Below, piece by piece: positions 3,571 through 39,658 of a stretch of 64,000 bases of DNA. A program made the position numbers and the translations under genes. Numbering within the stretch: the first letter of the stretch is position 1; each line of letters starts with the position of its first letter. The notes under the pieces were generated by a model. The model made no database searches and was not told where the DNA came from. It worked only from the letters and a program-made list of their open reading frames with translations. Source of the DNA: Nocardioidaceae bacterium. GTDB lineage: Bacteria; Actinomycetota; Actinomycetes; Propionibacteriales; Nocardioidaceae. The stretch covers positions 3-64,002 of the forward strand of contig JBDHZT010000005.1 in assembly GCA_039811985.1 (NCBI GenBank), written 5' to 3'.

Positions 3571-5022
3571 ATGACCCTGGACCACGAGGAGATCGCCTAC
3601 CTGCCCGCCACTGAGGTGCTGGCTGCGTTCCGACGGGAGGACCTGACACCGGTGGACTATCTCGGCGTCCTGCTCGAGCGCATCCAAGACGCTGCCGACA
3701 TCAACGCATTCGCTGCGGTCTACACCGACGACGCCATGGCCGAAGCGGAGCGGGCGACCGAGGTCTACCGCGCGCGTCCCGAACAGGCTCGGCGACTGGA
3801 GGGGCTGCCGGTCGCGATCAAGGACGAGACGCCGGTCGCTGGTCGGGTGACCACCGAGGGCACCCTGCTCCATGACGGTCACCTCGACGATGAGGACGCG
3901 GTGGTCGTGGCTCGAATGCGGCAGGCGGGGGCGATCGTCTTCGCACGCACGACGACACCGGAGTTCTGCGTGGCCCCGTTCACCCACTCCCGGGTCTGGG
4001 GTGTGACCCGCAACCCTTGGAGCCGAGAGTTCAGCCCCGGTGGCTCTTCCGGTGGCGCTGGCGCAGCGCTATCGGCCGGGCTCACTCCGATCGCAGACGG
4101 CTCCGACATCGGCGGCAGCATCCGGATCCCAGCCAGCTTCTGCGGCGTCGTCGGCTACAAGCCCCCATACGGCCGCGTCCCGGGTGTGCCGCCGTACAAC
4201 CTCGACCACTACTGCCACCAAGGACCCATGGCCCGTACGGTCGCCGATTGCGCGCTGCTGGCCGACGTGATGGCCGGGCCGGACCCTCTCGACCCGGCCA
4301 CGGTGCCGGGGACGGTCACCGTCAGCGGCGCGACTGCCGATCTGTCGAGCCTCCGGATCGCGGTCAGCGAGGACCTCGGAGGGTTCGATGTCGACGACGA
4401 GATCCGCGCAGCCGTCCAGACTGCAGCGCACCGGTTCGCCGACCTCGGCGCGACCGTGACCCCGGTCGATGTCGGCTGGACCTTCGACCAGGTGCAACAG
4501 GCCGCGCGGGCGCACTTCGGTGGCATCTTCGGCGCCCAGGTCCGCGAGTACGCAACCCAGCACGGCGACCGCCTGACGGCCTACGCCAAGGATTTCCCTC
4601 GTGTGCTGCCCGACGAACCCAGTGCCTACCTGCACGGCCTGGAGATCGAGTCCGAGATCCACGCGGGCCTGGCAGAGATCTACGCCGACCACGACCTGCT
4701 CATCGCGCCGGCCCTGGCCACCACCGGGTTCATTGCCGGTGAGGACTACGTGGACACCCGCCCTGGGGCCAACGGCCGGGAGGTGGACCACTTCATGGAC
4801 ACCTTGCCCACCCTCGTCTTCAACATCGCCTCACGCTGCCCCGTGCTGGTAGTCCCGGTGGCGCGCGCCAGCAACGGCGTGCCGATCGGCATCCAGATCG
4901 CCGGTCGGCCGTACGACGACCCGACTGTCTTCGCTGCGGCCGCCGCCTTCGAGCGACAGCAGCCCTGGTACGCCTCCCCCGCGCACCGCCCGACGCTTCC
5001 ACACGACAGGACCGCCCGATGA
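3571..5022 (+). CDS. Amidase (amidase-signature family)
   Basis: AIKD catalytic Lys, PGGSSGG, GSDIGGSIRIPASFCG. Confidence 0.93.
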   Translation: MTLDHEEIAYLPATEVLAAFRREDLTPVDYLGVLLERIQDAADINAFAAVYTDDAMAEAERATEVYRARPEQARRLEGLPVAIKDETPVAGRVTTEGTLLHDGHLDDEDAVVVARMRQAGAIVFARTTTPEFCVAPFTHSRVWGVTRNPWSREFSPGGSSGGAGAALSAGLTPIADGSDIGGSIRIPASFCGVVGYKPPYGRVPGVPPYNLDHYCHQGPMARTVADCALLADVMAGPDPLDPATVPGTVTVSGATADLSSLRIAVSEDLGGFDVDDEIRAAVQTAAHRFADLGATVTPVDVGWTFDQVQQAARAHFGGIFGAQVREYATQHGDRLTAYAKDFPRVLPDEPSAYLHGLEIESEIHAGLAEIYADHDLLIAPALATTGFIAGEDYVDTRPGANGREVDHFMDTLPTLVFNIASRCPVLVVPVARASNGVPIGIQIAGRPYDDPTVFAAAAAFERQQPWYASPAHRPTLPHDRTAR

Positions 5023-24520: not shown

Positions 24521-25359
24521 GTGATCGGCGCCTCGTCGGCCAACCGCTGCTTCTCGACCTCCACGTCGAAGTCCGCAGCCGGCCAGCCCAGGCCCAGCTC
24601 GGCGAGCGCCTCGTGCAGCAGCAGGCCGATGGCCAGGTTGCGGAACCACTTGCGATCGCTGGGGATCACGTGCCACGGCGCCACCTCGGTGTTGGTGCGC
24701 TCCAAGGCGATCTGGTACGCCTCGCGGTATGCCGGCCACAGCGCCCGCTCGTCGAGGTCGCCGGGGTTGTACTTCCAGTGCTTGGTGGGGTCGTCGAGCC
24801 GCGCCAGCAGCCGCTCCTTCTGCGTCTCGGCAGAGATGTGCAGCATGCACTTGATGAGCACGGTGCCTTGGCCGACCAGATCTGCCTCGAAGGCGTTGAT
24901 GGCGTCGTACCGCCGCTCGATCTCCTCCGGGGCGGCGAGCTGTCGCACCCGAGCGATCAGCACGTCCTCGTAGTGCGAGCGATCGAAGACCCCGACATAG
25001 CCCCGTGCCGGCAACGCCTTCTCGATGCGCCACAAGAAGTCGTGAGCGAGCTCCTCCTTCGTCGGCGCCTTGAAGGAGGTGATCCGCACACCCTGCGGGT
25101 CGATCAGCCCGACCGTGTGTCGCAGCACGCCGCCCTTGCCGGAGGTGTCCATCCCTTGCAGCACCAGCAGCACCGAGCGAGCCTGGTCGGTGCCGCGCGC
25201 CGCGAACAGCCGCTCCTGAAGGTCAGCCAACCCCGGACCGAGCTTGGCGAGCGCCTTCTCGCCCTGCGTCTTGTCGCCGTCGAAGCCGGGGGTGGCGTCG
25301 GTCGGAATCGTGCGCAGGTCCACCGGACCCGCCGGCAGGGTGAGCTCCGCAGTCGTCAT
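24517..25359 (-). CDS. ppk2: Polyphosphate kinase 2 family (polyP:nucleotide phosphotransferase)
   Basis: QGMDTSGKGG Walker A, FKAPT.EE..HDFLWR, FDRSHYEDV, KHWKY. Confidence 0.93.
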   Translation of the reverse strand: MTTAELTLPAGPVDLRTIPTDATPGFDGDKTQGEKALAKLGPGLADLQERLFAARGTDQARSVLLVLQGMDTSGKGGVLRHTVGLIDPQGVRITSFKAPTKEELAHDFLWRIEKALPARGYVGVFDRSHYEDVLIARVRQLAAPEEIERRYDAINAFEADLVGQGTVLIKCMLHISAETQKERLLARLDDPTKHWKYNPGDLDERALWPAYREAYQIALERTNTEVAPWHVIPSDRKWFRNLAIGLLLHEALAELGLGWPAADFDVEVEKQRLADEAPIT

Positions 25360-25419
25360 GGGTCCACACCCTAGAAGATGTGGTGCCGTCAGAACGGCCG
25401 CCCCTACTGGCGCCCGTTC

Positions 25420-26124
25420 TTAGCCGAGGACGGTCGCGACATCGAGGGTGCAGCCGACGACCGTGTCGACGCCGTCGTCGCTGCGGGGCTCGTCGAACCA
25501 GGTGCCGCGCACGAATCCGGCCTTGTCGAGCATCCGCAGCGATGCCTCGTTGCGGTGGTCCGGAGCCGCGAAGTACGACGTCACCTCGGGGAAGCGGGAT
25601 CGGGCCCGGAGCATCCAGGCCCATAGCACCCGGGCACCGATCCCTCGACCCACCCAGGCCAGCTCTCCGATGGCGTAGTCCACCCCGACCGCCTGGGGAT
25701 CGGGACACAGCACCGCATAGTCGGGATAGTCGCTGAGCCGATAGTCCTGCAAGAAGCCGACCGATCGCCCGTTGACCTCGGCGACCCACATCGTGGTCGG
25801 GGTCTCGCCCTCGATCCGGGGGGCGTACTTCTCCGTCACCGCCGCCAGCGTGGGCTCGCCGTCCTCTGCCCACCAGCGGTGCACATGTGGCTCGGTGCGC
25901 CACCTGGCCATCACTGGCAGATCCCCGCGGGTCATCGGTCGGACCGCGACCACGGTCAGCGGGTCGACCACGAACACCTTCGGGTCGCCAGCGAGATCGA
26001 TCGGCATCGGGTCGCCCAGCCACCCGCTCGCCAGCCGCCGTGCCGCAGCCGCCCAGGACTCCTCCGTCTTGACAAGTCCAGTGCGTTCCTCGCCGCGGTG
26101 TCGAACCGCCAGGCGCACGCTCAT
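25420..26124 (-). CDS. GNAT acetyltransferase, AAC(6')-Ib/IucB-like, with an N-terminal extension
   Basis: RW...PHV.RWW, GVDYAIGE...GRG.G, PD.RN.AS.R.L.KAGF. Confidence 0.82.
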   Translation of the reverse strand: MSVRLAVRHRGEERTGLVKTEESWAAAARRLASGWLGDPMPIDLAGDPKVFVVDPLTVVAVRPMTRGDLPVMARWRTEPHVHRWWAEDGEPTLAAVTEKYAPRIEGETPTTMWVAEVNGRSVGFLQDYRLSDYPDYAVLCPDPQAVGVDYAIGELAWVGRGIGARVLWAWMLRARSRFPEVTSYFAAPDHRNEASLRMLDKAGFVRGTWFDEPRSDDGVDTVVGCTLDVATVLG

Positions 26125-26128
26125 CTGC

Positions 26129-26792
26129 CTAGGTTAGAAGGTCGTCCTCGTCCTCTGAGTGAGCCAGCTCCGAACGCACGACGGCCAGCGCCAGTCCGGA
26201 GGAGTAGCCCTTGCGGGCGAGCATGCCGACCAACCGACGGGTGGCGGTCGTGGTGTCGACCCGTTGGAGGCTGCGAAGCCGCCGCCTGACCAGCGCCCGG
26301 GCGGCGACCTCCTGGGCCTCTTGGTCGACCTCGGCCACGGCCTCGCGCACGACCTCGTCGCTGACGCCTTTGCGGCGCAGCTCCTGCGCCAGCGCTCGTG
26401 GAGCGAGCCCGCGGCTGGCCTGTCGACTCTCCACCCAAGCTCGGGCGAACGCCTCGTCGTCGATCAGGCCCACCTCGGTGAACCGGTCCAGCAGTTGCTC
26501 CGAGATCTCCTCGGGCACTCCACGTCGATCCAGCTTGGTGCGCAGCTCGGCCCGGCTCCGGGCCTGGCCGGTGAGTTGGTCGAGCAGGATCTTGCGGGCC
26601 ACCGCCTCTGAGTCGGCGTCGGGGCCGTCGGCGACCGGATCGGCAGGGGCCGCGGACGACCTTCCCCTTTCCGGAGCAGCCCGGCCCTCAGCAGCCAGGT
26701 CGTGGCCAGCCCACGCGGCGACACCAGCAGCGACGTCACCGTGCCAGGGCCGGCCAGCGACCGGCTGAGCAGGCTTAGCCTCGAATCGAGGC

Positions 26793-26803
<11 letters not shown>
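26129..26803 (-). CDS. recX: Regulatory protein RecX
   Basis: L....RSRAEL..KL, GLIDD.AFA..WV, L.RKGY; overlaps the recA stop; start uncertain. Confidence 0.9.
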
Positions 26804-27851
<1,048 letters not shown>

Positions 27852-27878
27852 CTCCGTCCGATCTGGGTGTCACGTGGG

Positions 27879-27900
27879 ACGCTAGACCGGGCCACCGACA
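27879..27900 (-). promoter_or_regulatory. recA proximal promoter of the RecA-NDp / PafBC type
   Basis: TGTCGGTG-gcccggtc-TAGCGT matches TGTCRgtg-N8-TAnnnT. Confidence 0.85.
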
Positions 27901-27961
27901 GTTCCGATCCCCTCGAGCAGGACCTGTGGAGTACGCCGACCACCCGCGTCGTCTGCGCACT

Positions 27962-27985
27962 AACCTAGTGCGAACGTCTGTTCGA
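27962..27985 (-). promoter_or_regulatory. LexA SOS box with adjacent -10 (recA distal promoter)
   Basis: TCGAAC-AGAC-GTTCGC (27985-27970) followed 2 nt later by TAGGTT. Confidence 0.85.
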
Positions 27986-28176
27986 ACCAGTCACCGCGCG
28001 GCGGCGTGTCGCCCTCGGATGGCTGGCTCCGCCTGGAGGCGGCTCCGATCGACAGGGCGCTTGCCGAGAGAGCAGGCCTGGGGTTCCGGCTGCTGGTCGA
28101 GTCAGCGCTCTTTCGTCCGGTGGAGGCCGTCGATTGCGCCGAAGCTGCATGCCGCCCCGTCTGCCGCGGTGCTGTA

Positions 28177-28206
28177 GTGGCTGAGAACCCGATATACCGG
28201 CCACTT
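28177..28206 (+). repeat. Short dispersed imperfect palindrome, similar to 33648-33676 (opposite orientation)
   Basis: GTGGCTGAGAACCCGATATACCGGCCACTT vs reverse complement GTGGCCGAGAGCCTACTCATCAGCCACTT. Confidence 0.4.
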
Positions 28207-28319
28207 TGCCACCACAAGACCGCAGGAGACGCAAGAAGACCGCAGCAGCGCTCACCCGGCCAGCAACCCGCCAACGCGCGCCCACTCCGTGGTGCGCGAT
28301 CCACGGATCCAGGCTAGGC

Positions 28320-29573
28320 CTACCCCACGCCACCGGAGATCAGCCGGCGCGACCGGAAGGCGGCGGCGAGGGTCAGCGCAGCGATGAGTGCGGAGAAGAG
28401 GTTGAGGGTGGCGTAACCCTGCCAGCCCACGACCACACCGGCGAGCGCGCCGGCGCCGGCAGCGGCCAGGTTCATCACCAGGTCTGCTGCGCCTTGGATG
28501 TCGGTGCGCGCCTCGAGCGGGGTGTGCTCGACGACCAGGCTCGAGGAGGCGACCGTGCCGAAGGACCACCCGAGTCCGAGCAGGAAGAGTCCGGCGAAGA
28601 TCAGCCAGGAGCTCCCCTCTGGCGAGAGCCCGCTCAGCAGGAGCGAGACCAGCAGGACCGCCCCACCCACGGTCAACGTGACCGGGGCACCCCACCGGTC
28701 GGTCGCCCACCCCGACAGCGGCGAGAAGGCGAACATGCCGAGCACGTGGACCGAGATGACGAAGCCGATCACGCGCAGGTCGGAGCCGCCGTGGTGCATG
28801 TGCAGCGGCGTCATCACCATGACCCCGACCATCACGGCGTGCGACGAGGCCAACCCGACGATGGCTGCGACGAGGACGGGACGCTCCTGCAAGAGGGCCC
28901 GCACGTCGGACCACGAGAGGTTCCGCACGACGGCCGTGCGCACCCCCGCATGCTCACGCGCGACCAGCAGCGGGTCCGGCCGGAGGAAGAGCCACAAGAT
29001 CACCGTCGCGAGCAGCATTCCGAAGCTGCCAAGCAGGAACGGACCGGTGAGGGCGGGGATGCCCAGCTCATCCGCGAGCCGACCCGCCGGGCCGGTCAGA
29101 TTGGGGCCGAGGACGGCGCCGATGGTGGCCGCCCACACCACGATGCCCAGGGAGCGACCGCGGGACTCTTCCGGGGCGAGGTCGGTGGCGGCGTACCGCG
29201 CCGCGTTGTTGGCCGCCGACGTCGAGCCCAGCAGCACCGCACCGGCGAGGAGCAACAGCATCGATCCCGCCGCACCCGCCACCACGACCACGACCGCACC
29301 GACCGCACCGAGCAGATAGCCCAGCGCCAGGCCCGCGCGTCGCCCGCGGCGCGACATCAGCCGCGCGAGGAGGTACGACGCCACGGCCGTACCGAGCACC
29401 TGACTGGTCTGAGCCAGTCCGGCGAGCTTCTCCGAGCCGGACAGGTCCTCGGCCAACAGGGACGCCGTCGCGATGCCGATGGTGATGCCGGTCGCGCCGA
29501 CGATCTGGCCGGCGACCAGCGTCGCCATCGTGCGCCGCTGCACGTCGGCAGCGGCCGGGATCGATGACGTCAC
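28320..29573 (-). CDS. MFS transporter
   Basis: About 12 TM helices; R.GRR loop motifs; ARYAATDLA. Confidence 0.9.
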   Translation of the reverse strand: MTSSIPAAADVQRRTMATLVAGQIVGATGITIGIATASLLAEDLSGSEKLAGLAQTSQVLGTAVASYLLARLMSRRGRRAGLALGYLLGAVGAVVVVVAGAAGSMLLLLAGAVLLGSTSAANNAARYAATDLAPEESRGRSLGIVVWAATIGAVLGPNLTGPAGRLADELGIPALTGPFLLGSFGMLLATVILWLFLRPDPLLVAREHAGVRTAVVRNLSWSDVRALLQERPVLVAAIVGLASSHAVMVGVMVMTPLHMHHGGSDLRVIGFVISVHVLGMFAFSPLSGWATDRWGAPVTLTVGGAVLLVSLLLSGLSPEGSSWLIFAGLFLLGLGWSFGTVASSSLVVEHTPLEARTDIQGAADLVMNLAAAGAGALAGVVVGWQGYATLNLFSALIAALTLAAAFRSRRLISGGVG

Positions 29574-29764
29574 CGCTCGGACTCCGAGAGCTCCAGCACC
29601 CGCCAGACCGCCGCCCAGACCCGCTTCGGCGGCACCCCTTCATCGAGGGCCTGGACCACGGTCCGGCCGTCCAGGTCGGTGATCACGATCCGCTCCGCCC
29701 ACGAGCGGGCGTACGACGACCCGAGCGCCGCCTCGAGTCGCTCCCAGAGCTCGGTGTGCCTCAT
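29570..29764 (-). CDS. DUF3046 family protein
   Basis: MRHTELWERL...GSSYA..WA.......L.GRT..QAL..G..PK.VW.AVW. Confidence 0.88.
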   Translation of the reverse strand: MRHTELWERLEAALGSSYARSWAERIVITDLDGRTVVQALDEGVPPKRVWAAVWRVLELSESER

Positions 29765-30900
29765 CGGCGCCTCGCGAGGGCGTCCAGCCATGGCTCGCCC
29801 GCGGGATCGGCGGTGTGCTCGACCTGGATCGGCTGCCAACCGGCCCGTGAGAGCACCGTGGTCAGCGGCTCCTCCCGCCAGTAGGTGAACCGACGGGGCG
29901 CGTCGACGCGACCGTGCTGAGGCTCAGACCAGTTGTCGCCGTCGCCCTCCTTGAGGGCCAGATGGAGGACGGCGTCCGGGCCCGAGACCTCAGCCAGCCG
30001 GCCAAGGACCTTCGCAAGCGCGAACCGCTCCACATGGAGAAGGCTCGCGTTGGCCCAGATGCCGTCGTAGGGTCGGCCCGGATCGGCGGGATCACGCAGG
30101 TCGTCGCTCAGCGGGTCTATCAGGTCGGCCTCCAGCCCCCTGCCACGGAGCATCTCGACGAAGCCCGGCGTCACATCGGTGCACCGCACCGAACAGCCGG
30201 CCCCCTCCAGCGCGAGGGCGTCCCACCCAGGCCCGCTCCCGATCTCGAGCACTCGCGGTTGGGGTGGAAGCAGTCCGACGAATCGGGTGATCGCCGCAAC
30301 GACGGCTTCCACCGAGCTGGCGGTGCGCTCGGCGTACGGCTCGGCGTAGGCGTCGTACGCCGCGATGGTCCGCGCGACGGCGTCGAAGCCGACATCGTGC
30401 AGATGGTGGACGACGTCGTGCAGGTGATAGCGACCGAGCGAGTCGACGGTGAAGGTCGAGCCGTCGCTACGACGTCCGGTGCGGGACCAGTCCTCCGCAC
30501 CCACCGAGGAGTACAGCTCAGCAACGCGAGTCGCGGCCTCGACGAGCTCGACAGAGACGGCAGCCGGGTGCTGCTCCCCGTAGCGCGCCTCGATCGCAGT
30601 GACGTCCTGGTCCCAGCTGGCGAAGGCGGGGTCGTCGTGGCTCAGCATCTGCTCCACCCGCTCGGCGAAGATGCGATGCACGTCGCGGACATGGCAGGCA
30701 TACTCCAACGGCGACCACACCGTGGTGGTGGGTCGCGTCGCGACATCAGTCCCGTCGAGGACGTGCGTCCAGGACAACGCGTTGGTGGTGATCGAGCCAG
30801 CCAGGTCCGCGGTCGTGACCAGGCTGGCATCGAAGCCGCACGCCGGACACGGTCGGTCGAGGACCCAGGTCCAGTCCTTGGTGTCCGGCTCGATGCTCAC
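29761..30900 (-). CDS. DinB-family domain fused to a class I SAM methyltransferase
   Basis: WSPLEYACHVRDV and HDVVHHLHD (DinB His ligands); LEIGSGPG, DGIWANASLLH. Confidence 0.85.
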   Translation of the reverse strand: MSIEPDTKDWTWVLDRPCPACGFDASLVTTADLAGSITTNALSWTHVLDGTDVATRPTTTVWSPLEYACHVRDVHRIFAERVEQMLSHDDPAFASWDQDVTAIEARYGEQHPAAVSVELVEAATRVAELYSSVGAEDWSRTGRRSDGSTFTVDSLGRYHLHDVVHHLHDVGFDAVARTIAAYDAYAEPYAERTASSVEAVVAAITRFVGLLPPQPRVLEIGSGPGWDALALEGAGCSVRCTDVTPGFVEMLRGRGLEADLIDPLSDDLRDPADPGRPYDGIWANASLLHVERFALAKVLGRLAEVSGPDAVLHLALKEGDGDNWSEPQHGRVDAPRRFTYWREEPLTTVLSRAGWQPIQVEHTADPAGEPWLDALARRR

Positions 30901-30972
30901 CGCGGCATCCTCTCGCACGCGGCCACCCACCCTGGCGACCGACCATCGATCGAGTTCACATGAGCAACAGGT

Positions 30973-31785
30973 TCACTTGAGCAGCAGGGTGCTCAGCCGG
31001 CGGCGTACGACGAACAGCCCGAGCAGACCCATCAGCACCAGATAGACCACCGACGCCAGCGAGCTCCAGGTCAAGGCTCCGGTGGTCAGCTCGCGACAGA
31101 GCACCACACCGCGATAGAGCGGCGTGACCTCGACGAGCCAGCGGACGATCGGGTGGAGAGTGTCGATCGGGAAGAAGGTGCCCGAGAACAAGAACAGCGG
31201 CAGCTGGACCAGGGTGATCTTGTCGAAGTCCTGCCAGCTCGTCATGAAGGTGGTCAGCGCCATCCCGACCGCCGCGAACGCGAACGCGATGAGCAGGGCC
31301 GCGGGGAAGGCGAGCACCGCCCACCACGAACTGATCAGCCCGAGCATCCCCATGAAGACCACGAAGGCCGCGGAGTAGGCGCCACCGCGCAGCAGGGACC
31401 AGGTGATCTCGCCGCGCGCGATGTCGCCGGTCGACAACGGGGTGGCCAACTGCTGGTCGTACAGCTTGTCGAACCTGAGCTTGAAGAAGACGTTGTAGGT
31501 GGCGTCCATGACCGCGCCGTTCATCGCCGAGGCAGCGAGCATCCCCGGCGCGACAAAGGCCGCATAAGGGATCTCGCGACCGTTGAACTCGAAGGTGTCG
31601 ATCAGCTGTCCGACGCCCACCCCGATCGAGAGCAGATAGAAGACCGGCTCGAAGAATCCGCTCGCGAAGAGCTTCCAGGCCTTGCGATAGACCAGGTAGT
31701 TGCGCAGCACCAGGAGTTGAACGGCCCCGAGGAGCGAGGGTGGCGCCGGGATGGTCCTGGCCGGAGTCGTCGGAGTCGTGGTCAT
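30973..31785 (-). CDS. ABC-2 exporter permease (NodJ-like), second
   Basis: EPVFYLL.IG.G.G, Y..FVAPG, PLFLFSGTFFP. Confidence 0.9.
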   Translation of the reverse strand: MTTTPTTPARTIPAPPSLLGAVQLLVLRNYLVYRKAWKLFASGFFEPVFYLLSIGVGVGQLIDTFEFNGREIPYAAFVAPGMLAASAMNGAVMDATYNVFFKLRFDKLYDQQLATPLSTGDIARGEITWSLLRGGAYSAAFVVFMGMLGLISSWWAVLAFPAALLIAFAFAAVGMALTTFMTSWQDFDKITLVQLPLFLFSGTFFPIDTLHPIVRWLVEVTPLYRGVVLCRELTTGALTWSSLASVVYLVLMGLLGLFVVRRRLSTLLLK

Positions 31786-32609
31786 CAGCTGGCCAGCCTC
31801 TTGGCGAGTCCGGTCACCGACCAGTGCCACCCGAGCGCGAGCAACGCCACCAGGACCGCGGTGTTCACGGCGGCGACCGGCCAGTCGATGGTGTCGAGGG
31901 TGAACATCCGCGACAGATTGACTCCGTGCCACAGCGGCGTCAGCCGCGCCACCCAGCTGAGCACCGCGCCGAGGTTGGCGATGGGGAAGAACGCGCCGGA
32001 GAACAAGAACAGCGGGAAGACGCCGAGCCGGAAGATCAGCCCGAAGCCCTCCTCGGAGGTCAGTCGCGCGGTGAACCCGAAGACCAGGGTCGCGAAGACC
32101 ATGCCGACCAGGACCTGCGCCGCGAGCGCCAGGATCGGGCCCCACCAGGTCGCATAGATCCCGAACGGCAGCAGGATCAGGGTGTAGACACCGCACGTGG
32201 TCACCAGCCGGAACAACACGAACAGCAGGTTCCCCGCCACCAGGTGGCGCACCTCCAGCGGCGTGGCCAGCATCGAGTAGTAGACCTTCTGCCACTTGAT
32301 CATGCTCATCACCGGGTAGGTCGTCTCCCCCACCGCGGTCTGCATGGCGTGCGCGGCGACCAGGCCGGGCACGACGAAGGCGAGGTACGACGTCGCGCCC
32401 TCGAGCTGGCCGGGATCGCCCTTGATGAAACCGCCGAGAAGGATGCCCATCGCGACGACGTAGAACAGCGGGGTGACGAAGGAGGAGATCACCGAGCCGC
32501 GCCAGGTCCGCTTGTAGACCGTGGCCCAGTAGTCGAGCTGCCTGACGGCACCCTCGCCCAGACTGAGCGTGTGGGGCGTCGGAGTGCTGGATGCGAGGTC
32601 GACCATCAC
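31785..32609 (-). CDS. ABC-2 exporter permease (NodJ-like), first
   Basis: YLAFVVPG, LFLFSGAFFP, TPLWHGV. Confidence 0.9.
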   Translation of the reverse strand: MMVDLASSTPTPHTLSLGEGAVRQLDYWATVYKRTWRGSVISSFVTPLFYVVAMGILLGGFIKGDPGQLEGATSYLAFVVPGLVAAHAMQTAVGETTYPVMSMIKWQKVYYSMLATPLEVRHLVAGNLLFVLFRLVTTCGVYTLILLPFGIYATWWGPILALAAQVLVGMVFATLVFGFTARLTSEEGFGLIFRLGVFPLFLFSGAFFPIANLGAVLSWVARLTPLWHGVNLSRMFTLDTIDWPVAAVNTAVLVALLALGWHWSVTGLAKRLAS

Positions 32610-33532
32610 TCCACCAGCGTCCGACCGGTCAGATGCAAGAAGACGTCCTCCAGGGTGGAGCGCCGCACCAGCACCGCCACCGGATGCAGCCCCCGCTCGT
32701 TGGCATGGGCGATGACGGCCTCTCCGTCGTCGCTGTAGACCAGCAGCCGGTCGGGCAGCACCTCGACGCGCTCGCCCAGGTCGGCGACCTTCTCGGCAGC
32801 GGCCTCGTGCTCACCGACGCCGAAGCGCAGCTCGGCCACCTCGCGCGTGGAGTGCTCGCGGATCAGGTCGAGTGGAGCACCCTCGGCCACGATCAGGCCT
32901 TGGTCCATCACCACCAGCCGGTCGCACAGCTGCTCGGCCTCGTCCATGTAGTGCGTGGTGAGGACCAGCGTGACGCCCTGCTGCTTGAGTCGGAACAGCC
33001 GATCCCAGAGCAGGTGCCGTGCCTGCGGATCGAGCCCCGTGGTCGGCTCGTCGAGCAGGATCAGGTCGGGCGCGTTGATCAGGGAGCGGGCGATGGTGAG
33101 CCGCCTCTTCATGCCGCCGGAGAGGCTGTCCACCTTGGCGTCCGCTTTGTCTCTGAGCTGGACGAAGTCCAACAACTCATGGGCCCGGGTGCGCACTTCC
33201 CCGCGCGGGAGGCCGAAGTAGCGGCCATAGATGTAGAGGTTGTCGAAGACGTTGAGCTCGGTGTCCAAGGTGTCGTCTTGCGGGCAGACCCCCAGCCGCG
33301 CGCGGATCGCCGGCCCGTCGGTGTGTGGGTCCATGCCGAGGATGGACAGCTCTCCCCCGGTGCTCGGCGACACCGCGGCGATCATCCGCATCGTCGATGA
33401 CTTCCCCGCCCCGTTCGGGCCGAGGAAGCCGAACGCCTCGCCACGGCGTACGTCGATGTCGACCCCCCGCACCGCCTCGAAGTCACCGAACGACTTGCGC
33501 AGCCCCCGGGCGTGAATCATCGAGTCGGACAC
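32606..33532 (-). CDS. ABC exporter ATP-binding protein (NodI/DrrA-like)
   Basis: GPNGAGKS, LSGGMKRR, LDEPTTGLDP, TTHYMDEA. Confidence 0.93.
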   Translation of the reverse strand: MSDSMIHARGLRKSFGDFEAVRGVDIDVRRGEAFGFLGPNGAGKSSTMRMIAAVSPSTGGELSILGMDPHTDGPAIRARLGVCPQDDTLDTELNVFDNLYIYGRYFGLPRGEVRTRAHELLDFVQLRDKADAKVDSLSGGMKRRLTIARSLINAPDLILLDEPTTGLDPQARHLLWDRLFRLKQQGVTLVLTTHYMDEAEQLCDRLVVMDQGLIVAEGAPLDLIREHSTREVAELRFGVGEHEAAAEKVADLGERVEVLPDRLLVYSDDGEAVIAHANERGLHPVAVLVRRSTLEDVFLHLTGRTLVE

Positions 33533-33540
33533 GAGTAGCG

Positions 33541-33563
33541 AGGTTAGACGACACCTCCGACAA
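33541..33563 (-). promoter_or_regulatory. PafBC / RecA-NDp-type promoter of the ABC exporter operon
   Basis: TTGTCGGAG-gtgtcgtc-TAACCT, 8 nt before the GTG at 33532. Confidence 0.7.
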
Positions 33564-33712
33564 CAGCACGCATCCCGGCTGCCGAGTGGTTGAGAACGAC
33601 GCCGACATCACGGTTTGGACATGAAGCGCGGGGAAGAACCCGTGCAGAAGTGGCTGATGAGTAGGCTCTCGGCCACGAACCCGTCGAGCGGCGGGCCAGA
33701 CATCCGGGGGTA

Positions 33713-34006
33713 GTGCCGATGACGGTGCGTACGGTGTCGCCCGTGGCGCGAAGCAGGGCCACGCAGCGCGTCATGCTGGGTGCGTTGGCGGCCTTCTTCG
33801 GCAGCGTGGCTGTGCAGCGCGTGGTCTTCTACGCCATCTACGACAACACAAACCCTGATGGGGACCCCGACGGAGGGGTAGCAGAGAACTATGTGGCCTT
33901 TCTGATCGCTGCGGTCGTGTTCGTGGTCATCGTGACAGCGGTGCTGGTCACGGTGCTGCGACGCCTACGACGCGGGGTCTACGAGGACCTCCCGACGACG
34001 TCATAG
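33713..34006 (+). CDS. Small 2-TM hypothetical membrane protein
   Basis: Two hydrophobic segments; start uncertain (33713 or later). Confidence 0.5.
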   Translation: MPMTVRTVSPVARSRATQRVMLGALAAFFGSVAVQRVVFYAIYDNTNPDGDPDGGVAENYVAFLIAAVVFVVIVTAVLVTVLRRLRRGVYEDLPTTS

Positions 34007-34042
34007 CTCCGGTCGCTCGAGCGACCAATCTGGATGACGTCC
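33997..34042 (+). repeat. REP-like hairpin element, copy 3
   Basis: GACGTCAT-agctcc-GGTCG-ctcgag-CGACC-aatct-GGATGACGTCC. Confidence 0.75.
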
Positions 34043-34093
34043 CGCCGTCCGGCCCGCTGCCTTCCCGCTGCCTTCCCGCCGTCCGAGCGCGAG

Positions 34094-34115
34094 TGTCGGC
34101 GCGGTGCGGGAGGAT
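34094..34115 (+). promoter_or_regulatory. PafBC-type promoter of lhr (variant -10)
   Basis: TGTCGG-N10-GAGGAT, 6 nt before GTG 34122. Confidence 0.6.
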
Positions 34116-34121
34116 AGGCAG

Positions 34122-37100
34122 GTGGACGGCGTGTGGGACTCCTTCTCAGCCCCGACGGGCGAGTGGTTCCGCGCCGCGTTCGCCGAGCCCACGGCCGCCC
34201 AGGTCGGCGCGTGGCGAGCGATCTCTGCCGGCCGACACGCACTGGTGGTGGCGCCCACCGGGTCGGGCAAGACCCTGTCGGCGTTTCTGTGGTCGCTGGA
34301 CCGGCTGCTGAGCACGCCGCGCCCGGAGGACAAGAGTCGACGCACGCGGGTGCTCTACGTCTCCCCGCTCAAGGCGCTGGCGGTCGATGTCGAGCGCAAC
34401 CTGCGCGCCCCGCTGACCGGGATCCGGGCGACGGCCGAGCGGCTCGGTGAGCCGCTCCCCGAGATCTCGGTCGGGTTGCGCACGGGCGACACCTCGGCGG
34501 CGGACCGTCGACGCCAGCTGAGTCAGCCCGCCGACATCATGATCACCACGCCCGAGTCGCTGTTCTTGATGCTCACCTCGCAGGCCCGGGAGACGCTGCG
34601 CGGTGTCGAGACGGTGATCATCGACGAGGTCCATGCGGTCGCTGGCACCAAGCGCGGCGCGCACCTGGCCGTCACCTTGGAGCGCCTTGACGAGTTGTTG
34701 GACCGACCGGCCCAGCGGATCGGACTGTCGGCCACAGTCCGCCCGCACGAGGAGGTGGCGAGGTTCCTCGGCGGTGTGGCGCCGGTCGAGATCGTGGCGC
34801 CGCCTGCGGAGAAGTCCTGGGACCTGCGCGTGGTCGTCCCGGTCGACGACATGACCGCTCCCGACGACGGAGCAGAGGATCCGGAGGGGCGTTCGTCGAT
34901 CTGGCCGCACGTCGAGGAGCAGATCGCGGAGCTGATCGGCCAGCACCGCTCGACGATCGTCTTCGCCAACTCTCGTCGGCTCGCCGAGCGACTCACCGCC
35001 AGGCTCAACGAGATCGCAGCTGAGCGCGACAGCGACAGCAACGACGCATCTGACCCCGCCAGCGCCTCGCCGGCCCAGGTGATGGCCCAGTCCGGGCACA
35101 CTCACGGCGCGGCGCCGGTCATCGCGAAGGCGCACCACGGCTCGGTGTCGAAGGAGCAGCGCGCGATCATCGAGGACGACCTCAAGCGCGGCCGGCTGCC
35201 GGCGGTGGTGGCGACCAGCAGCCTCGAGCTCGGCATCGACATGGGCGCGGTCGACCTGGTCATCCAGGTCGAGTCGCCGCCGAGCGTGGCCAGCGCCCTG
35301 CAGCGAGTCGGTCGGGCCGGCCACCAGGTGGGTGAGACCTCCCGCGGGGTGCTCTTCCCCAAGCACCGTGGCGATCTCGCGCCGACCGCCGTCGCGGTCG
35401 AGCGGATGCGCAGCGGGACGATCGAGTCGCTTCGGGTGCCGGCCAACCCGCTCGACGTGTTGGCCCAGCAGGTGGTCGCCGCGACCGCGCTGGACGAGTG
35501 GGGCGTGGACGACTTGTTCGCCCTGATCCGCCGCAGCGCTCCCTTCACCAGTCTGCCGCGCAGTGCCTACGACGCGACCCTGGACCTGCTGGCCGGCCGC
35601 TATCCGTCGGAGGAGTTCGCCGAGTTGCGCCCCCGGATCGTGTGGGACCGGGTCGCCGGCACGCTGACCGGTCGACCGGGTGCGCAGCGGCTCGCGGTCA
35701 CCAGCGGCGGCACCATCCCCGACCGCGGTCTCTTCGGCGTCTTCCTGGTCGGCGCGACCGGGCCGGGCGCCCGGGTGGGCGAGCTCGACGAGGAGATGGT
35801 CTACGAGTCCCGCGTCGGCGACGTCTTCGCGCTGGGAGCGACCAGCTGGCGGATCGAGGACATCACCCACGACCGGGTGCTGGTGACCCCAGCCCCCGGC
35901 GTGCCCGGTCGACTGCCGTTCTGGAAGGGCGACAGCCTCGGCCGTCCGGCCGAGCTGGGCGCAGCGGTGGGCGCGCTGCGCCACGAGCTGGGCAGCCTGC
36001 CCGAGCCGAAGGCGCTCGCCCGCGCCCATGAGGCCGGGCTGGACGACCGAGCCGCGGCCAACCTGGTCGCCTACCTGCGCGAGCAGCGGGAGGCCACCCA
36101 GCTCTTGCCCAGCGACCAGACTCTCGTCGTCGAGCGGGTCCGTGACGAGCTCGGCGACTGGCGGCTGGTGGTGCACTCGCCCTACGGCACTCCCGTGCAC
36201 GCACCCTGGGCGCTGGCGATCAACGCCCGACTCCGGCAGCGGTACGGCGTCGACGGCCAGGCCGTCGCCAGCGACGACGGCATCGTCATCCGCATTCCAG
36301 ATGGAGAGGCCGAGCCACCGGGCGGCGACCTGATCGTCTTCGACGCCGAAGAGATCGCCGAGATCGTGACCACCGAGGTGGGCGGCTCCGCCCTGTTCGC
36401 CTCCCGGTTCCGCGAGTGCGCAGCGCGCGCGCTGCTCCTGCCTCGACGCGACCCCGGCCGCCGCTCGCCACTGTGGCAACAGCGCCAACGCTCGGCCCAG
36501 CTGCTTGAGGTGGCGGCACAGTATCCCTCCTTCCCGATCGTCCTCGAGGCGGTCCGCGAGTGCCTCCAAGACGTCTACGACCTGCCGTCGCTGACCAACC
36601 TGATGGACCGCATCGAGCGACGAGAGGTCGCGGTCAGCGACGTGGCCACCACTCAGCCGTCGCCGTTCGCACGGACGTTGCTGTTCGGCTACGTCGCCCA
36701 GTTCATGTACGAAGGCGACTCCCCCGTCGCCGAGCGTCGCGCCGCCGCGCTCTCGCTGGATCAAGGCCTGCTCGCCGAGCTGCTCGGCCGAGCGGAGCTG
36801 CGTGAGCTGCTCGACCCCGAGGTGCTCGCGCAGCTCGAGGCGGAGCTCCAACGACTCGCGCCCGACCGTCGGATCGGCACGGTGGAGCAACTCGCCGACC
36901 TGCTCCGGATCCTCGGGCCGTTGACCATCGACGAGGTCGCCGAGCGCAGCGTCGAGGGCGCGACGGTCGCAGACTGGGTCGCTGAGCTCGCCGGCAAACG
37001 CCGCATCGTCAACCTGCGCGTCGCCGGACGGGACTGCTGGGCCGCGGTCGAGGACGTCGGTCGCCTGCGTGACGGGCTCGGCGTGCCGGTGCCTCCCGGC

Positions 37101-38711
37101 ACTCCTGACGCGTTCACCGACCCGGTCGAGGATCCGCTGGCCGACCTGATCGGCCGCTATGCCCGCAGTCACGGCCCCTTCACCGCCGACGACGTCGCCT
37201 CTCGACTCGGCCTCGGCATCGCCGTGGTCCGGCACACCCTGGAGCGGCTGACCGCACGGGGTCGCCTGTTGGAAGGCGAGTTCCGGCCGGCCGGCACCAG
37301 CCAGGAGTGGTGCGATGCCGACGTCCTGCGCAGGTTGCGCCGGCGGTCCTTGGCCAACCTCCGACACGAGGTCGAGCCAGTCGAGCCCGATGTGCTCGGC
37401 AGGTTCCTGCTCGCCTGGCAGCGGGTGGGTGCCGGCCGAGGTGCCCTGCGTGGGATCGACGGCGTCTATGCCGCGGTCGAGCAGCTCGCGGGGGCGCCGG
37501 TGCCGGCATCGGCACTGGAGCCACTCGTGCTGGCCGGCCGCGTCGTCGACTACGAGCCCGCCATGCTCGACCAGCTCACCACCTCCGGCGAGGTGCTCTG
37601 GACCGGTCACGGCGCGCTCCCCGGCAACGACGGCTGGGTCTCCCTCCACCTGGCCGATCAGGCACCGCTCACACTGGCCCTTCCCGATCTGGCCCTTCCC
37701 GATCTGGCCCTTCCCGATCCCACCCCCTCCGACCCACCAGAGCGGAGCGATCTGCACCGCGCCATCCTCGACGCACTGGCACCGGGCGGCGCGTGGTTCT
37801 TCCGCCAACTCGCCGAGGTGGTCGCCGTCGACGACGAGGCCGCGTTGACCTCCGCGCTGTGGGATCTGGTCTGGGCCGGCCTGATCGGCAACGACTCCCT
37901 CGCGCCGCTGCGGGCGCTCACCGGCTCCGGACGGCCCACGCACCGCACTCGCAGACCGGCGCCGCGCAGCCGCCCGGTGCTCAGCGGTCGACCCCGGCTG
38001 CCGTCACGACAGGGTCCCCCGGAGACCGCGGGCCGGTGGACCCTGCTGCCCGAGCGGGACGACGACCCGACCCGCCGTGCCCACGCCACGGCCGAGCGGC
38101 TCCTCGACCGACACGGCGTGGTGACCAGGGGCGCGGTCGTCGGTGAGCGGGTGCCCGGCGGCTTCGCCGGCGTCTACCGCGTGCTCTCCGCCTTCGAGGA
38201 GTCCGGCCGTTGCCGGCGGGGATACTTCGTGGCCGGTCTGGGCGCTGCCCAGTTCGGCACCGCTGGCGCGATCGACCGACTGCGGACCTTCATCCACCGC
38301 GACGAGCTCGCCGATCCAGGGGCGGTCGCGCTCGCAGCGACCGACCCGGCCAACCCCTACGGCGCGGCCCTGCCCTGGCCCGAGCGTGCTGCTCAGACTC
38401 AGGGAGAGGAAGGCCCCGGCCATCGGCCGGGGCGCAAGGCCGGTGCCCTGGTCGTGCTCGTTGATGGGAGTCTCACCCTCTACGTCGAGCGCGGCGGGCG
38501 GACCCTGCTCACCTGGTCCGACGACGAGGAGCGACTCACCGCCGCGACTCGTGCGCTGGCCGATGCCGCCCGAGCAGGACTGCTGGGCAAGCTCATCGTC
38601 GAGCGCGCGGATGGCGAGCAGCTGCTCGGCGCCGGGGCCACACCGCTGCGGCTCGCGCTCCAGTCGGCGGGCTTCGTCACGACTCCTCGAGGGTTGCGGT
38701 TCCGTGCCTGA
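34122..38711 (+). CDS. lhr: ATP-dependent helicase Lhr (full length)
   Basis: APTGSGKT, TTPESL, DEVH, LSATV, QRVGRAGH, long C-terminal wHTH region; 1529 aa. Confidence 0.96.
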   Translation: MDGVWDSFSAPTGEWFRAAFAEPTAAQVGAWRAISAGRHALVVAPTGSGKTLSAFLWSLDRLLSTPRPEDKSRRTRVLYVSPLKALAVDVERNLRAPLTGIRATAERLGEPLPEISVGLRTGDTSAADRRRQLSQPADIMITTPESLFLMLTSQARETLRGVETVIIDEVHAVAGTKRGAHLAVTLERLDELLDRPAQRIGLSATVRPHEEVARFLGGVAPVEIVAPPAEKSWDLRVVVPVDDMTAPDDGAEDPEGRSSIWPHVEEQIAELIGQHRSTIVFANSRRLAERLTARLNEIAAERDSDSNDASDPASASPAQVMAQSGHTHGAAPVIAKAHHGSVSKEQRAIIEDDLKRGRLPAVVATSSLELGIDMGAVDLVIQVESPPSVASALQRVGRAGHQVGETSRGVLFPKHRGDLAPTAVAVERMRSGTIESLRVPANPLDVLAQQVVAATALDEWGVDDLFALIRRSAPFTSLPRSAYDATLDLLAGRYPSEEFAELRPRIVWDRVAGTLTGRPGAQRLAVTSGGTIPDRGLFGVFLVGATGPGARVGELDEEMVYESRVGDVFALGATSWRIEDITHDRVLVTPAPGVPGRLPFWKGDSLGRPAELGAAVGALRHELGSLPEPKALARAHEAGLDDRAAANLVAYLREQREATQLLPSDQTLVVERVRDELGDWRLVVHSPYGTPVHAPWALAINARLRQRYGVDGQAVASDDGIVIRIPDGEAEPPGGDLIVFDAEEIAEIVTTEVGGSALFASRFRECAARALLLPRRDPGRRSPLWQQRQRSAQLLEVAAQYPSFPIVLEAVRECLQDVYDLPSLTNLMDRIERREVAVSDVATTQPSPFARTLLFGYVAQFMYEGDSPVAERRAAALSLDQGLLAELLGRAELRELLDPEVLAQLEAELQRLAPDRRIGTVEQLADLLRILGPLTIDEVAERSVEGATVADWVAELAGKRRIVNLRVAGRDCWAAVEDVGRLRDGLGVPVPPGTPDAFTDPVEDPLADLIGRYARSHGPFTADDVASRLGLGIAVVRHTLERLTARGRLLEGEFRPAGTSQEWCDADVLRRLRRRSLANLRHEVEPVEPDVLGRFLLAWQRVGAGRGALRGIDGVYAAVEQLAGAPVPASALEPLVLAGRVVDYEPAMLDQLTTSGEVLWTGHGALPGNDGWVSLHLADQAPLTLALPDLALPDLALPDPTPSDPPERSDLHRAILDALAPGGAWFFRQLAEVVAVDDEAALTSALWDLVWAGLIGNDSLAPLRALTGSGRPTHRTRRPAPRSRPVLSGRPRLPSRQGPPETAGRWTLLPERDDDPTRRAHATAERLLDRHGVVTRGAVVGERVPGGFAGVYRVLSAFEESGRCRRGYFVAGLGAAQFGTAGAIDRLRTFIHRDELADPGAVALAATDPANPYGAALPWPERAAQTQGEEGPGHRPGRKAGALVVLVDGSLTLYVERGGRTLLTWSDDEERLTAATRALADAARAGLLGKLIVERADGEQLLGAGATPLRLALQSAGFVTTPRGLRFRA
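37674..37718 (+). repeat. In-frame 15-bp tandem repeat x3 (LALPD) in Lhr
   Basis: CTGGCCCTTCCCGAT x3. Confidence 0.95.
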
Positions 38712-38866
38712 GCATGGATCCACCGGTCGTCGCCGTCGCGAGCGGCATCAGACGGGTGTCCCGGCAAGGCGGAGTGCCGAAGGCGGGCCGGAGGCCCGTC
38801 GAGGTGCGAGAACGCAGCCGGGGTGCCCGGATGGTGACGCGCAGCAGGCGAAAGATCGGTGGTTCC

Positions 38867-39658
38867 ATGCCTGAGGGAGACACCGTCTGGCGGACGGCGC
38901 GCACCCTCGATCGGGCGCTCGCCGGCCATCGACTCACCGCCACCGACTTCCGCGTCCCGGCCCTGGCCACCGCTGACCTGGCCGGAGCGGTCGTGCGACA
39001 GACGGTGTCGCGCGGGAAGCATCTGCTCACCCACCTCGACCACGGGTCGCACACCTGGACCCTGCACACGCATCTGATGATGGAGGGCGCCTGGCACACC
39101 TACCAGCAGGGCCAGCGCTGGCGTCGGCCCGACCATCAGGCGCGCGTCGTGCTGACCGCCCACGACCGGCTGGCGGTCGGCTTCTCCCTCGGCATCGTCG
39201 AGCTGCTGCCGCGCAGCGAGGAGCACCAGGTCGTCGGCCACCTCGGGCCGGACCTGCTCGGCGCCGACTGGGACGAGCAGGAGGCGCTTCGACGCCTGCT
39301 GCGGGCGCCCGAGCGACCGATCCACGAGGCACTGCTCGACCAGACCAACCTGGCCGGCATCGGCAACCTCTACGCCGCCGAGCTCTGCTTCACCAGTGGG
39401 ATCCACCCGACCACTCCGGTCGGCGAGGTCGCCGATCTGCCTCGGCTGATCCGGCGGGCGCAGGCCATGCTCGAGCAGAACAAGCTGCGTGCTGTCCAGA
39501 CCACCACCGGCGACCTGCGCCAGGGCGAGCGGGTCTGGGTCTATCGCCGCGACCGGCAGCCCTGCCGTCGATGCGACTCGACCATCGAGGTCTCCTCGAT
39601 CGGAGAGCCCGGCCGGGAGCGGGCGGCGTACTGGTGCCCGACCTGCCAGCCGACCTGA
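38867..39658 (+). CDS. nei: Fpg/Nei DNA glycosylase (Nei2-like)
   Basis: MPEGDTV, RGKHLL, LLDQ..LAGIGNLY, C..C...YWCP.CQ zinc finger. Confidence 0.93.
   Translation: MPEGDTVWRTARTLDRALAGHRLTATDFRVPALATADLAGAVVRQTVSRGKHLLTHLDHGSHTWTLHTHLMMEGAWHTYQQGQRWRRPDHQARVVLTAHDRLAVGFSLGIVELLPRSEEHQVVGHLGPDLLGADWDEQEALRRLLRAPERPIHEALLDQTNLAGIGNLYAAELCFTSGIHPTTPVGEVADLPRLIRRAQAMLEQNKLRAVQTTTGDLRQGERVWVYRRDRQPCRRCDSTIEVSSIGEPGRERAAYWCPTCQPT

Follow-up and report, generated by a model that had tools for sequence, protein, structure and literature searches.

The ABC exporter and its promoter region

The window analysed in this work is a 64-kilobase (kb) stretch of DNA from a Nocardioidaceae bacterium. The subject of the analysis is a three-gene ATP-binding cassette (ABC) exporter, which lies in the window between recA and the helicase gene lhr, and the promoter preceding it, which is predicted to be of the PafBC type known from the LexA-independent DNA-damage response. 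All genes on the exporter side, from the ATPase to recA, are located on the minus strand. The exporter genes and the promoter are arranged as follows, with lengths given in nucleotides (nt) or amino acids (aa).

33541-33562, minus strand: predicted exporter promoter of the PafBC/RecA-NDp type, with the -26 element TGTCGG at 33562-33557 and the -10 element TAACCT at 33546-33541, without a -35-like hexamer
32606-33532, minus strand: ABC ATPase of 308 aa, ABC_tran (PF00005) match of 109 bits, predicted leaderless start GTG 33532; similar to NodI and DrrA, below both cut-offs
31785-32609, minus strand: ABC-2 permease 1 of 274 aa, ABC2_membrane (PF01061), start overlapping the stop of the ATPase gene (GTGA)
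30973-31785, minus strand: ABC-2 permease 2 of 270 aa, PF01061, ATG 31785 overlapping the stop of the permease 1 gene (TGATG)

The two permeases score 57.9 and 67.7 bits against the PF01061 cut-off of 26.9, and the locus has the composition of an ABC-2 (type V) exporter, comprising an ATPase and ABC2_membrane permeases above the Pfam cut-offs and no substrate-binding protein. A first-pass annotation of this DNA, made from the sequence alone, had described two permeases with overlapping stops and starts downstream of the ATPase, as is found at the GTGA and TGATG junctions, and had called the exporter NodIJ-like. The resemblance stands, but the membership does not. The NodI score is 307.6 versus the NCBIfam cut-off of 521 and the NodJ scores are 76-102 versus 206.65, while the DrrA score is 273.5 versus 312.45 and the DrrB scores are 56.6-64.6 versus 223.05 (TIGR01188, TIGR01247). 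Since all these scores lie under the curated cut-offs, membership of NodIJ and DrrAB was rejected, and the exporter should not be filed under either name. Both systems are nevertheless the best NCBIfam matches and, like the exporter, they combine an ABC-2 membrane domain with an ATPase that is extended at its C-terminus. They differ from it in that the exporter has two distinct permeases rather than a homodimer and has no antibiotic or nod cluster nearby.

The closest matches of the ATPase in the PDB are the nucleotide-binding domains (NBDs) of ABCA1/3/4/7, which is a generic similarity, and a PDB sequence search with the permease gave no match. By architecture, the nearest characterised system appears to be Rv2686c-Rv2687c-Rv2688c of M. 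tuberculosis (MSMEG_1502-1504), in which one NBD protein and two different ABC-2 membrane proteins are likewise encoded in one operon. That system is an ABC fluoroquinolone pump, for which the export of ciprofloxacin and its lowered accumulation have been reported (PMC8829022). The known likeness is one of architecture, and Rv2686c-Rv2687c-Rv2688c is described neither as damage-inducible nor as linked to recA.

The sequence TGTCGGAG-N8-TAACCT is located at 33562-33541 of the minus strand, 8 nt before GTG 33532 of the ATPase gene, exactly where the first-pass annotation had placed it. The string 5'-tTGTCGGAGgtgtcgtcTAACCTcgctactcGTG-3' was confirmed in the minus-strand sequence upstream of the ATPase gene, and the promoter region as a whole, read 5' to 3' on the minus strand, is gctgtTGTCGGAGgtgtcgtcTAACCTcgctactcGTGtccgactcgATGatt. 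In the published PafBC consensus, tGTCgg(N10)tA(N3)T, the GTC is read by PafB, the 3' half is a SigA -10 element and a -35 element is lacking (PMC8635444). The exporter box, TGTCGG-aggtgtcgtc-TAACCT, fits this consensus exactly, including the GTC triplet and the 10-nt spacer by which a PafBC promoter is recognised. The hexamer 17 nt upstream of the exporter -10 element is GTGCTG, which matches TTGACA in two of six positions, and no sigma-70-type pair of -35 and -10 elements was found in 26000-34300, so that none precedes the exporter. A search of the exporter upstream region, 33533-33712, for the SOS box TCGAAC-N4-GTTCGA with up to two mismatches found none, and at the same tolerance the only promoter-located SOS box in the window is that of recA. 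Control of the exporter by LexA within the SOS response was rejected because no SOS box was found upstream.

An A-rich block (gAAAC/gATAAC...ggatg) was observed about 5-20 nt upstream of TGTCGG in the exporter promoters of many families (e.g., at loci L057, L084 and L002), and in the window it lies at about 33590-33565 of the minus strand. Neither the remaining PafBC-type promoters of the genome nor recA promoters have it, the latter sharing 'tccacag' instead. The block may be UP-element-like or may be the site of a second regulator.

The promoter box in the genome and in orthologues

The motif TGTCRG-N10-TANNNT occurs exactly twice in the window, before the exporter and before recA. Shuffled sequences gave an expectation of 0.14 matches, and none of the 100 shuffles reached two. 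The presence of two exact boxes agrees with the earlier remark that the exporter promoter shares its geometry with that of recA. The whole genome of 4.27 Mb contains 23 exact boxes, mostly located 1-8 nt before long open reading frames (ORFs). As judged by sequence and Pfam, the box-bearing repair genes are uvrB, sbcD, recA, dnaX, radA, nth and a recC-like gene. Further boxes precede genes for a PD-(D/E)XK nuclease, a DEDDh-GIY-YIG (Cho-like) protein, an SprT/YgjP-like peptidase, an MDMPI/DinB protein and an SNF2 helicase, as well as dnaB and smc. This set of genes is what a PafBC regulon would predict. The dnaB candidate of the genome (contig C22) reads like an intein-interrupted gene.

A position weight matrix (PWM) was trained on 14 repair and replication sites of the genome, with the exporter site left out. 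The exporter site scored 21.2, which is rank 16 of 8.5 million positions and the top rank among the sites outside the training set, and the repair-gene sites scored 21.9-29.2. By this measure the exporter box appears to be on a par with the repair-gene boxes of its own genome. The regulator locus has the order pafA-x-pafB-pafC-tatC and lies on contig C10, with pafA at 24856-26217 and the tandem WYL-domain genes pafB-pafC at 27452-29415. The picture is similar to that of the mycobacterial PafBC/RecA-NDp system: in this genome, the same bipartite motif without a -35 element precedes recA, lhr, uvrB, radA and other repair genes, pafBC lies by pafA and the starts are often leaderless. The mycobacterial PafBC regulon and the RecA-NDp promoters were reportedly described by Gamulin in 2004 and Mueller in 2018. 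Seven WYL-domain matches were found in the genome; besides pafB-pafC, there are a second tandem WYL pair at C66:1429-3482 and three single WYL genes. The second pair could be a paralogous PafBC-like regulator.

With permease 1 as a query, orthologues were found in 16 of 24 genomes of the same genus and in other families of the order. In the class as a whole, orthologues of the exporter are present in 109 of 301 genomes and in 62 of 140 genera. The taxa named among the matches listed, about twenty, include Nocardioides, Kribbella, Salinispora, Paractinoplanes, Pseudonocardia, Geodermatophilus, Ornithinibacter, Arthrobacter, Sinomonas, Acidimicrobiia and Gaiella, and do not include Mycobacterium. 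Each orthologue locus was anchored on the ATPase by tblastn, and 105 upstream regions of 140 nt were scored with a PWM threshold of at least 12. The exporter upstream region reached the threshold in 48 of the 105 orthologues; of 7062 control windows taken from these loci, 18 did so. The first-pass annotation had named a lack of conservation of the motif in orthologues as a finding that would speak against its proposal, and this check did not refute it, as the box is kept in these 48. Boxes were found at 18 of 25 loci of the own genus; in Kribbella and in family f3; in families f14, f7, f20, f25, f43, f45 and f2; and in a part of f18. The named box-bearing genera beyond Kribbella are Salinispora, Paractinoplanes and Pseudonocardia, and the box is kept in at least 10 families.

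In the alignment on the motif, TGTCGG and TAGnGT are fixed and the flanks have diverged. An in-frame start codon (46 GTG, 1 ATG) follows the -10 element at a distance of 6, 7 or 8 nt in 47 of the 48 box-bearing loci, which is the geometry expected of a leaderless mRNA. Leaderless mRNAs are common in mycobacteria (see the references of PMC8635444).

It could be supposed that the site only resembles a PafBC box and belongs to a common SigA promoter with constitutive activity, or to one under some other WYL regulator, and that the exporter stands outside the damage response. The seven WYL matches, with the second tandem pair among them, are consistent with this, as is the fact that half of the orthologues do without the -26 element. 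However, in at least 10 families the -26 hexamer and its 10-nt spacing have stayed constant where the neighbouring bases have diverged, the identical hexamer and spacing are found on classical repair genes of the genome, and a promoter lacking a -35 element, such as that of the exporter, should not be used by SigA alone (PMC8635444). Such an origin of the box is considered very improbable.

It is likely, on the contrary, that the exporter is served by a PafBC-dependent promoter, as predicted, that it belongs to the LexA-independent DNA-damage regulon and that it is co-induced with recA and lhr-nei. The PafBC-type promoter proposed in the first-pass annotation receives strong comparative support from the repair-gene-like box, the fixed distance of 6-8 nt and the conserved neighbourhood described below. 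Several points weigh against this reading. Roughly half of the orthologues have no box or a degenerate one, so that box and exporter are separable. Among them are 6 of 7 loci of family f39, the Acidimicrobiia and the Micrococcaceae-like loci, which retain only TAnnnT and the leaderless start. The second tandem WYL pair could be the real regulator of the exporter. The very high conservation of the ATPase, which is 63-77% identical across the class, is more in keeping with a housekeeping substrate than with a changing range of drugs. Finally, the PafBC motif of M. smegmatis was called 'not conserved' in S. venezuelae (PMC9380542).

The exporters of f39 mostly lack the -26 element. This family probably includes mycobacterial relatives, and, if it does, the absence of the pump from the mycobacterial PafBC literature would be explained. 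As for Streptomyces, the DrrA-type genes induced in mitomycin RNA-seq of S. venezuelae are vnz_06535 (939 bp, log2 fold change 1.78), vnz_09510 (1.83) and vnz_09515 (1.44). The Streptomyces-like orthologue of the exporter has a length of 921-936 bp, and the induced genes are a lead only in its regard.

The recA-lhr neighbourhood and the downstream genes

The features flanking the exporter on both sides are the following.

26793-27851, minus strand: recA, with recX after it (26863-26129)
27879-27900, minus strand: PafBC-type box of recA, TGTCGGTG-gcccggtc-TAGCGT, with an SOS box at 27970-27985 containing one mismatch
34094-34115, plus strand: PafBC-type box of lhr, a variant, TGTCGGCG-N8-GAGGAT, with a probable leaderless start GTG 34122
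34122-38711, plus strand: lhr helicase, with a nei2-like glycosylase gene at 38714-39658; divergent from the exporter

Three PafBC-type promoters, those of recA, the exporter and lhr, are located within 6.3 kb of the window. The lhr box is kept in other families, where the first base of the -10 element is G or C in place of T (CAGGAT, GATGAT, GACAAT, GAGGAT) and the start codon follows a few nt on. This conserved arrangement points to GTG 34122 as the true start of lhr and not to 34104, the start of the longest ORF, which falls inside the promoter box. Between the exporter and lhr promoters, a gene for a 97-aa membrane protein was observed (33713-34006, plus strand), whose match to actinobacterial Holin-X reaches 22.9 bits versus a cut-off of 28.4.

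The neighbourhood comparison covered sixteen 20-kb loci, which represent eleven families. In these, the exporter is accompanied by recA-recX in 11 of the 16 loci and by lhr in 11 of 16, and is usually situated between the two; the clustering between recA and lhr-nei that the first-pass annotation had pointed out in the window is thus widely conserved. The recA promoters of the sampled loci have exact boxes. DUF3046, which in Actinobacteria usually lies next to recA on its upstream side, is found beside the exporter, often with a major facilitator superfamily (MFS) transporter. MFS orthologues 47-62% identical to that of the window were seen in other families adjacent to the exporter or to recA. 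Judging from these loci, the wiring and the neighbourhood (lhr divergent from the exporter, MFS, DUF3046, recA-recX) appear to be old and widespread in Actinomycetes. In two loci of other families, the recA matches are split by about 1 kb (L187, 4758-6869, and L192, 5075-7171), which suggests a RecA intein.

Downstream of the exporter, the window contains the following features.

30907-30912, minus strand: GAGGAT, a hexamer resembling a -10 element and separated by 6 nt from the GTG of the DinB-methyltransferase gene, with GGGTGG and no GTC at -26
29761-30900, minus strand: fusion of DinB_2 and a class-I S-adenosylmethionine-dependent methyltransferase, 379 aa, by Pfam and NCBIfam; a genus-specific insertion between the exporter and DUF3046
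29570-29764, minus strand: DUF3046 protein of 64 aa, with an ATGA overlap with the stop of the DinB-methyltransferase gene
28320-29573, minus strand: MFS_1 transporter of 417 aa, with a GTGA overlap with the stop of the DUF3046 gene

This is the order of genes, with its 4-nt overlaps, that the first-pass annotation had given. The 72-nt gap that it placed between permease 2 and the DinB-methyltransferase gene is also right, provided that the latter starts at GTG 30900. The comparison of orthologues backs this start, the N-terminal residues VSIEPDTKDWTW being conserved from GTG 30900 onward. The gap is the single exception among the five junctions of the six-gene string, the other four being overlapping.

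According to the same annotation, all six genes, i.e. those of the ABC exporter, the DinB-methyltransferase, DUF3046 and the MFS transporter, would make up one PafBC-driven operon. They are all on the same strand with the overlaps described, the 72-nt gap contains no convincing terminator, and a strongly folding region is met only past the MFS gene (z = -2.9). Therefore, read-through from the exporter into the three downstream genes is possible. At locus L195 of the same genus, all six genes are located on one strand with gaps of about 15-30 nt by match coordinates. At locus L187 of family f14, the exporter, DUF3046 and MFS genes abut on one strand, where the permease 2 end and the DUF3046 match overlap and MFS comes next; this arrangement suggests that the three form one transcription unit there. 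On the other hand, GAGGAT-N6-GTG precedes the DinB-methyltransferase gene in L195 as well, which points to a separate leaderless start; the DinB-methyltransferase is missing at this position outside the genus; and families differ in the order in which DUF3046 and MFS are placed with respect to the exporter. A six-gene operon in the window is a tentative proposal, and the balance of these observations tips somewhat against it.

The conserved GAGGAT-N6-GTG makes an internal leaderless promoter before the DinB-methyltransferase gene likely, and this candidate promoter probably serves the downstream genes. Here the caveat attached to the operon in the first-pass annotation, that the DinB-methyltransferase gene might have its own -10 element, has gained weight, the hexamer being conserved in a second genome of the genus. 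The detoxification and methylation arm of the proposed unit, by contrast, now looks weak: the DinB-methyltransferase is found beside the exporter only in the genus of the window and has its own -10-like hexamer. A PafBC box for this gene in the window was rejected, as GTC is lacking at -26. In L109, a metagenome-assembled genome of Nocardioides, CGTCGG-N10-CACCAT-N6-ATG was observed before the DinB-methyltransferase gene (about 4500-4540), and there, unlike in the window, the gene may be a direct PafBC target. The spacer between MFS and recA (28090-28335, minus strand) forms long hairpins that lack a U-tract, folds unusually well (-128 kcal/mol, z = -2.9) and may be a terminator or an insulator.

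Predicted mechanism, substrate and meaning

The region 33562-33541 would work as a 'sigma adaptation' promoter, in which TGTCGG is read by PafB, the -10 element TAACCT is of the SigA type and the -35 element is lacking. Upon DNA damage, PafBC activated by single-stranded DNA would recruit RNA polymerase with SigA to the exporter promoter, and the first transcribed base would be the G of GTG 33532 or one adjacent to it. The resulting leaderless mRNA would be translated into the ATPase and, by coupled translation, the two permeases, which would assemble into an ABC-2 (type V) exporter, co-induced with the neighbouring recA and lhr-nei. The observations are the motif, which ranks high in the genome and is conserved, the geometry of a leaderless start, the synteny, and a genome that has pafBC but an exporter promoter that has no SOS box; we infer from them the binding of PafBC, the induction and the function of the exporter. 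It is probable that the pump is an unrecognised part of the DNA-damage response.

The most likely function of the exporter, as far as its context allows prediction, would be the damage-triggered export of a DNA-damaging small molecule or conjugate, candidates being gyrase poisons, quinones, alkylators and anthracyclines. It has been reported that the PafBC arm is the one preferentially activated by quinolones and by stress on replication forks (PMC8682763). DUF3046 was predicted to bind GyrA, and depletion of its M. tuberculosis homologue, Rv2738c, alters levofloxacin susceptibility (bioRxiv 10.64898/2026.07.15.738315). The quinolone response of PafBC and the link between DUF3046 and GyrA make up a coherent, though unproven, picture of a response module for gyrase poisons or genotoxins.

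A promoter of the PafBC type, inducible by damage, would also be compatible with a pump that moves an endogenous compound needed in the damage response, e.g. a lipid or envelope component, a thiol conjugate or mercapturic acid, or damaged nucleobase products. Identity of 63-77% across the class is unusual for the ATPase of a drug pump, the ATPase is closest to the ABCA-type lipid exporters, whose NBDs are its best PDB matches, and NodIJ exports lipo-oligosaccharides. The known PafBC regulon includes redox and thiol genes, such as those of ergothioneine synthesis (PMC8223512), and genes of the DinB superfamily and MDMPI type bear the box or lie nearby. However, genes of lipid or thiol pathways do not recur next to the exporter from family to family, the permeases, at 35-58%, show much weaker conservation than the ATPase, as expected if the substrate sites drift, and the recurrent partner is an MFS transporter of the drug type. 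An endogenous substrate seems rather unlikely. As to the export of a damaging compound, it may tentatively be suggested, at somewhat below even chances, that the LexA-independent response of Actinomycetes has an old, conserved export arm, in which an ABC-2 pump, often together with MFS and DUF3046 and tied to recA and lhr, is switched on by PafBC from a leaderless promoter and removes that compound, such as a natural gyrase poison or a quinolone.

The PafBC response has been described as a repair and redox programme. The promoter type, the mechanism and most of the regulon are known already, and the difference from the mycobacterial regulon is that the predicted target here is a membrane exporter and not a repair or redox gene. 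The literature searched for a link of PafBC or RecA-NDp to transporters or efflux yielded no description of an ABC exporter as a PafBC target, the full regulon table of M. smegmatis being outside that search; the membership of the exporter, the conservation of its box and the synteny with recA and lhr are undescribed in the same literature. An efflux-type transporter wired into a DNA-damage regulon is represented also by DinF, the multidrug and toxic compound extrusion (MATE) protein encoded in the lexA-dinF SOS operon of E. coli. DinF, however, belongs to another transporter class, depends on LexA repression rather than PafBC activation and comes from a different phylum.

If the prediction is correct, drug or toxin export would be added to the PafBC response, and antibiotics that damage DNA could switch on their own export in actinomycetes of the soil and possibly in relatives of clinical relevance. 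Such an inducible tolerance would be built in, and studies centred on mycobacteria would have overlooked it because the pump appears to have lost the -26 element in f39, the probable family of mycobacterial relatives. The prediction would also supply an expression condition for a widespread uncharacterised ABC-2 transporter, and it adds context to DUF3046 as a recently predicted binder of GyrA.

Two other transporter genes with boxes were observed in the genome. In front of a transporter gene of the EamA family (C21:3015-3959, plus strand), an exact box with a PWM score of 22.9 lies 7 nt from the GTG, and among the 9 nearest same-genus orthologues 7 have a box with a score of 17 or more; the gene product seems to be a second transporter in the predicted regulon of the genus. 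A gene for a fused type-I ABC exporter (contig C17, minus strand) has a weaker box 54 nt upstream.

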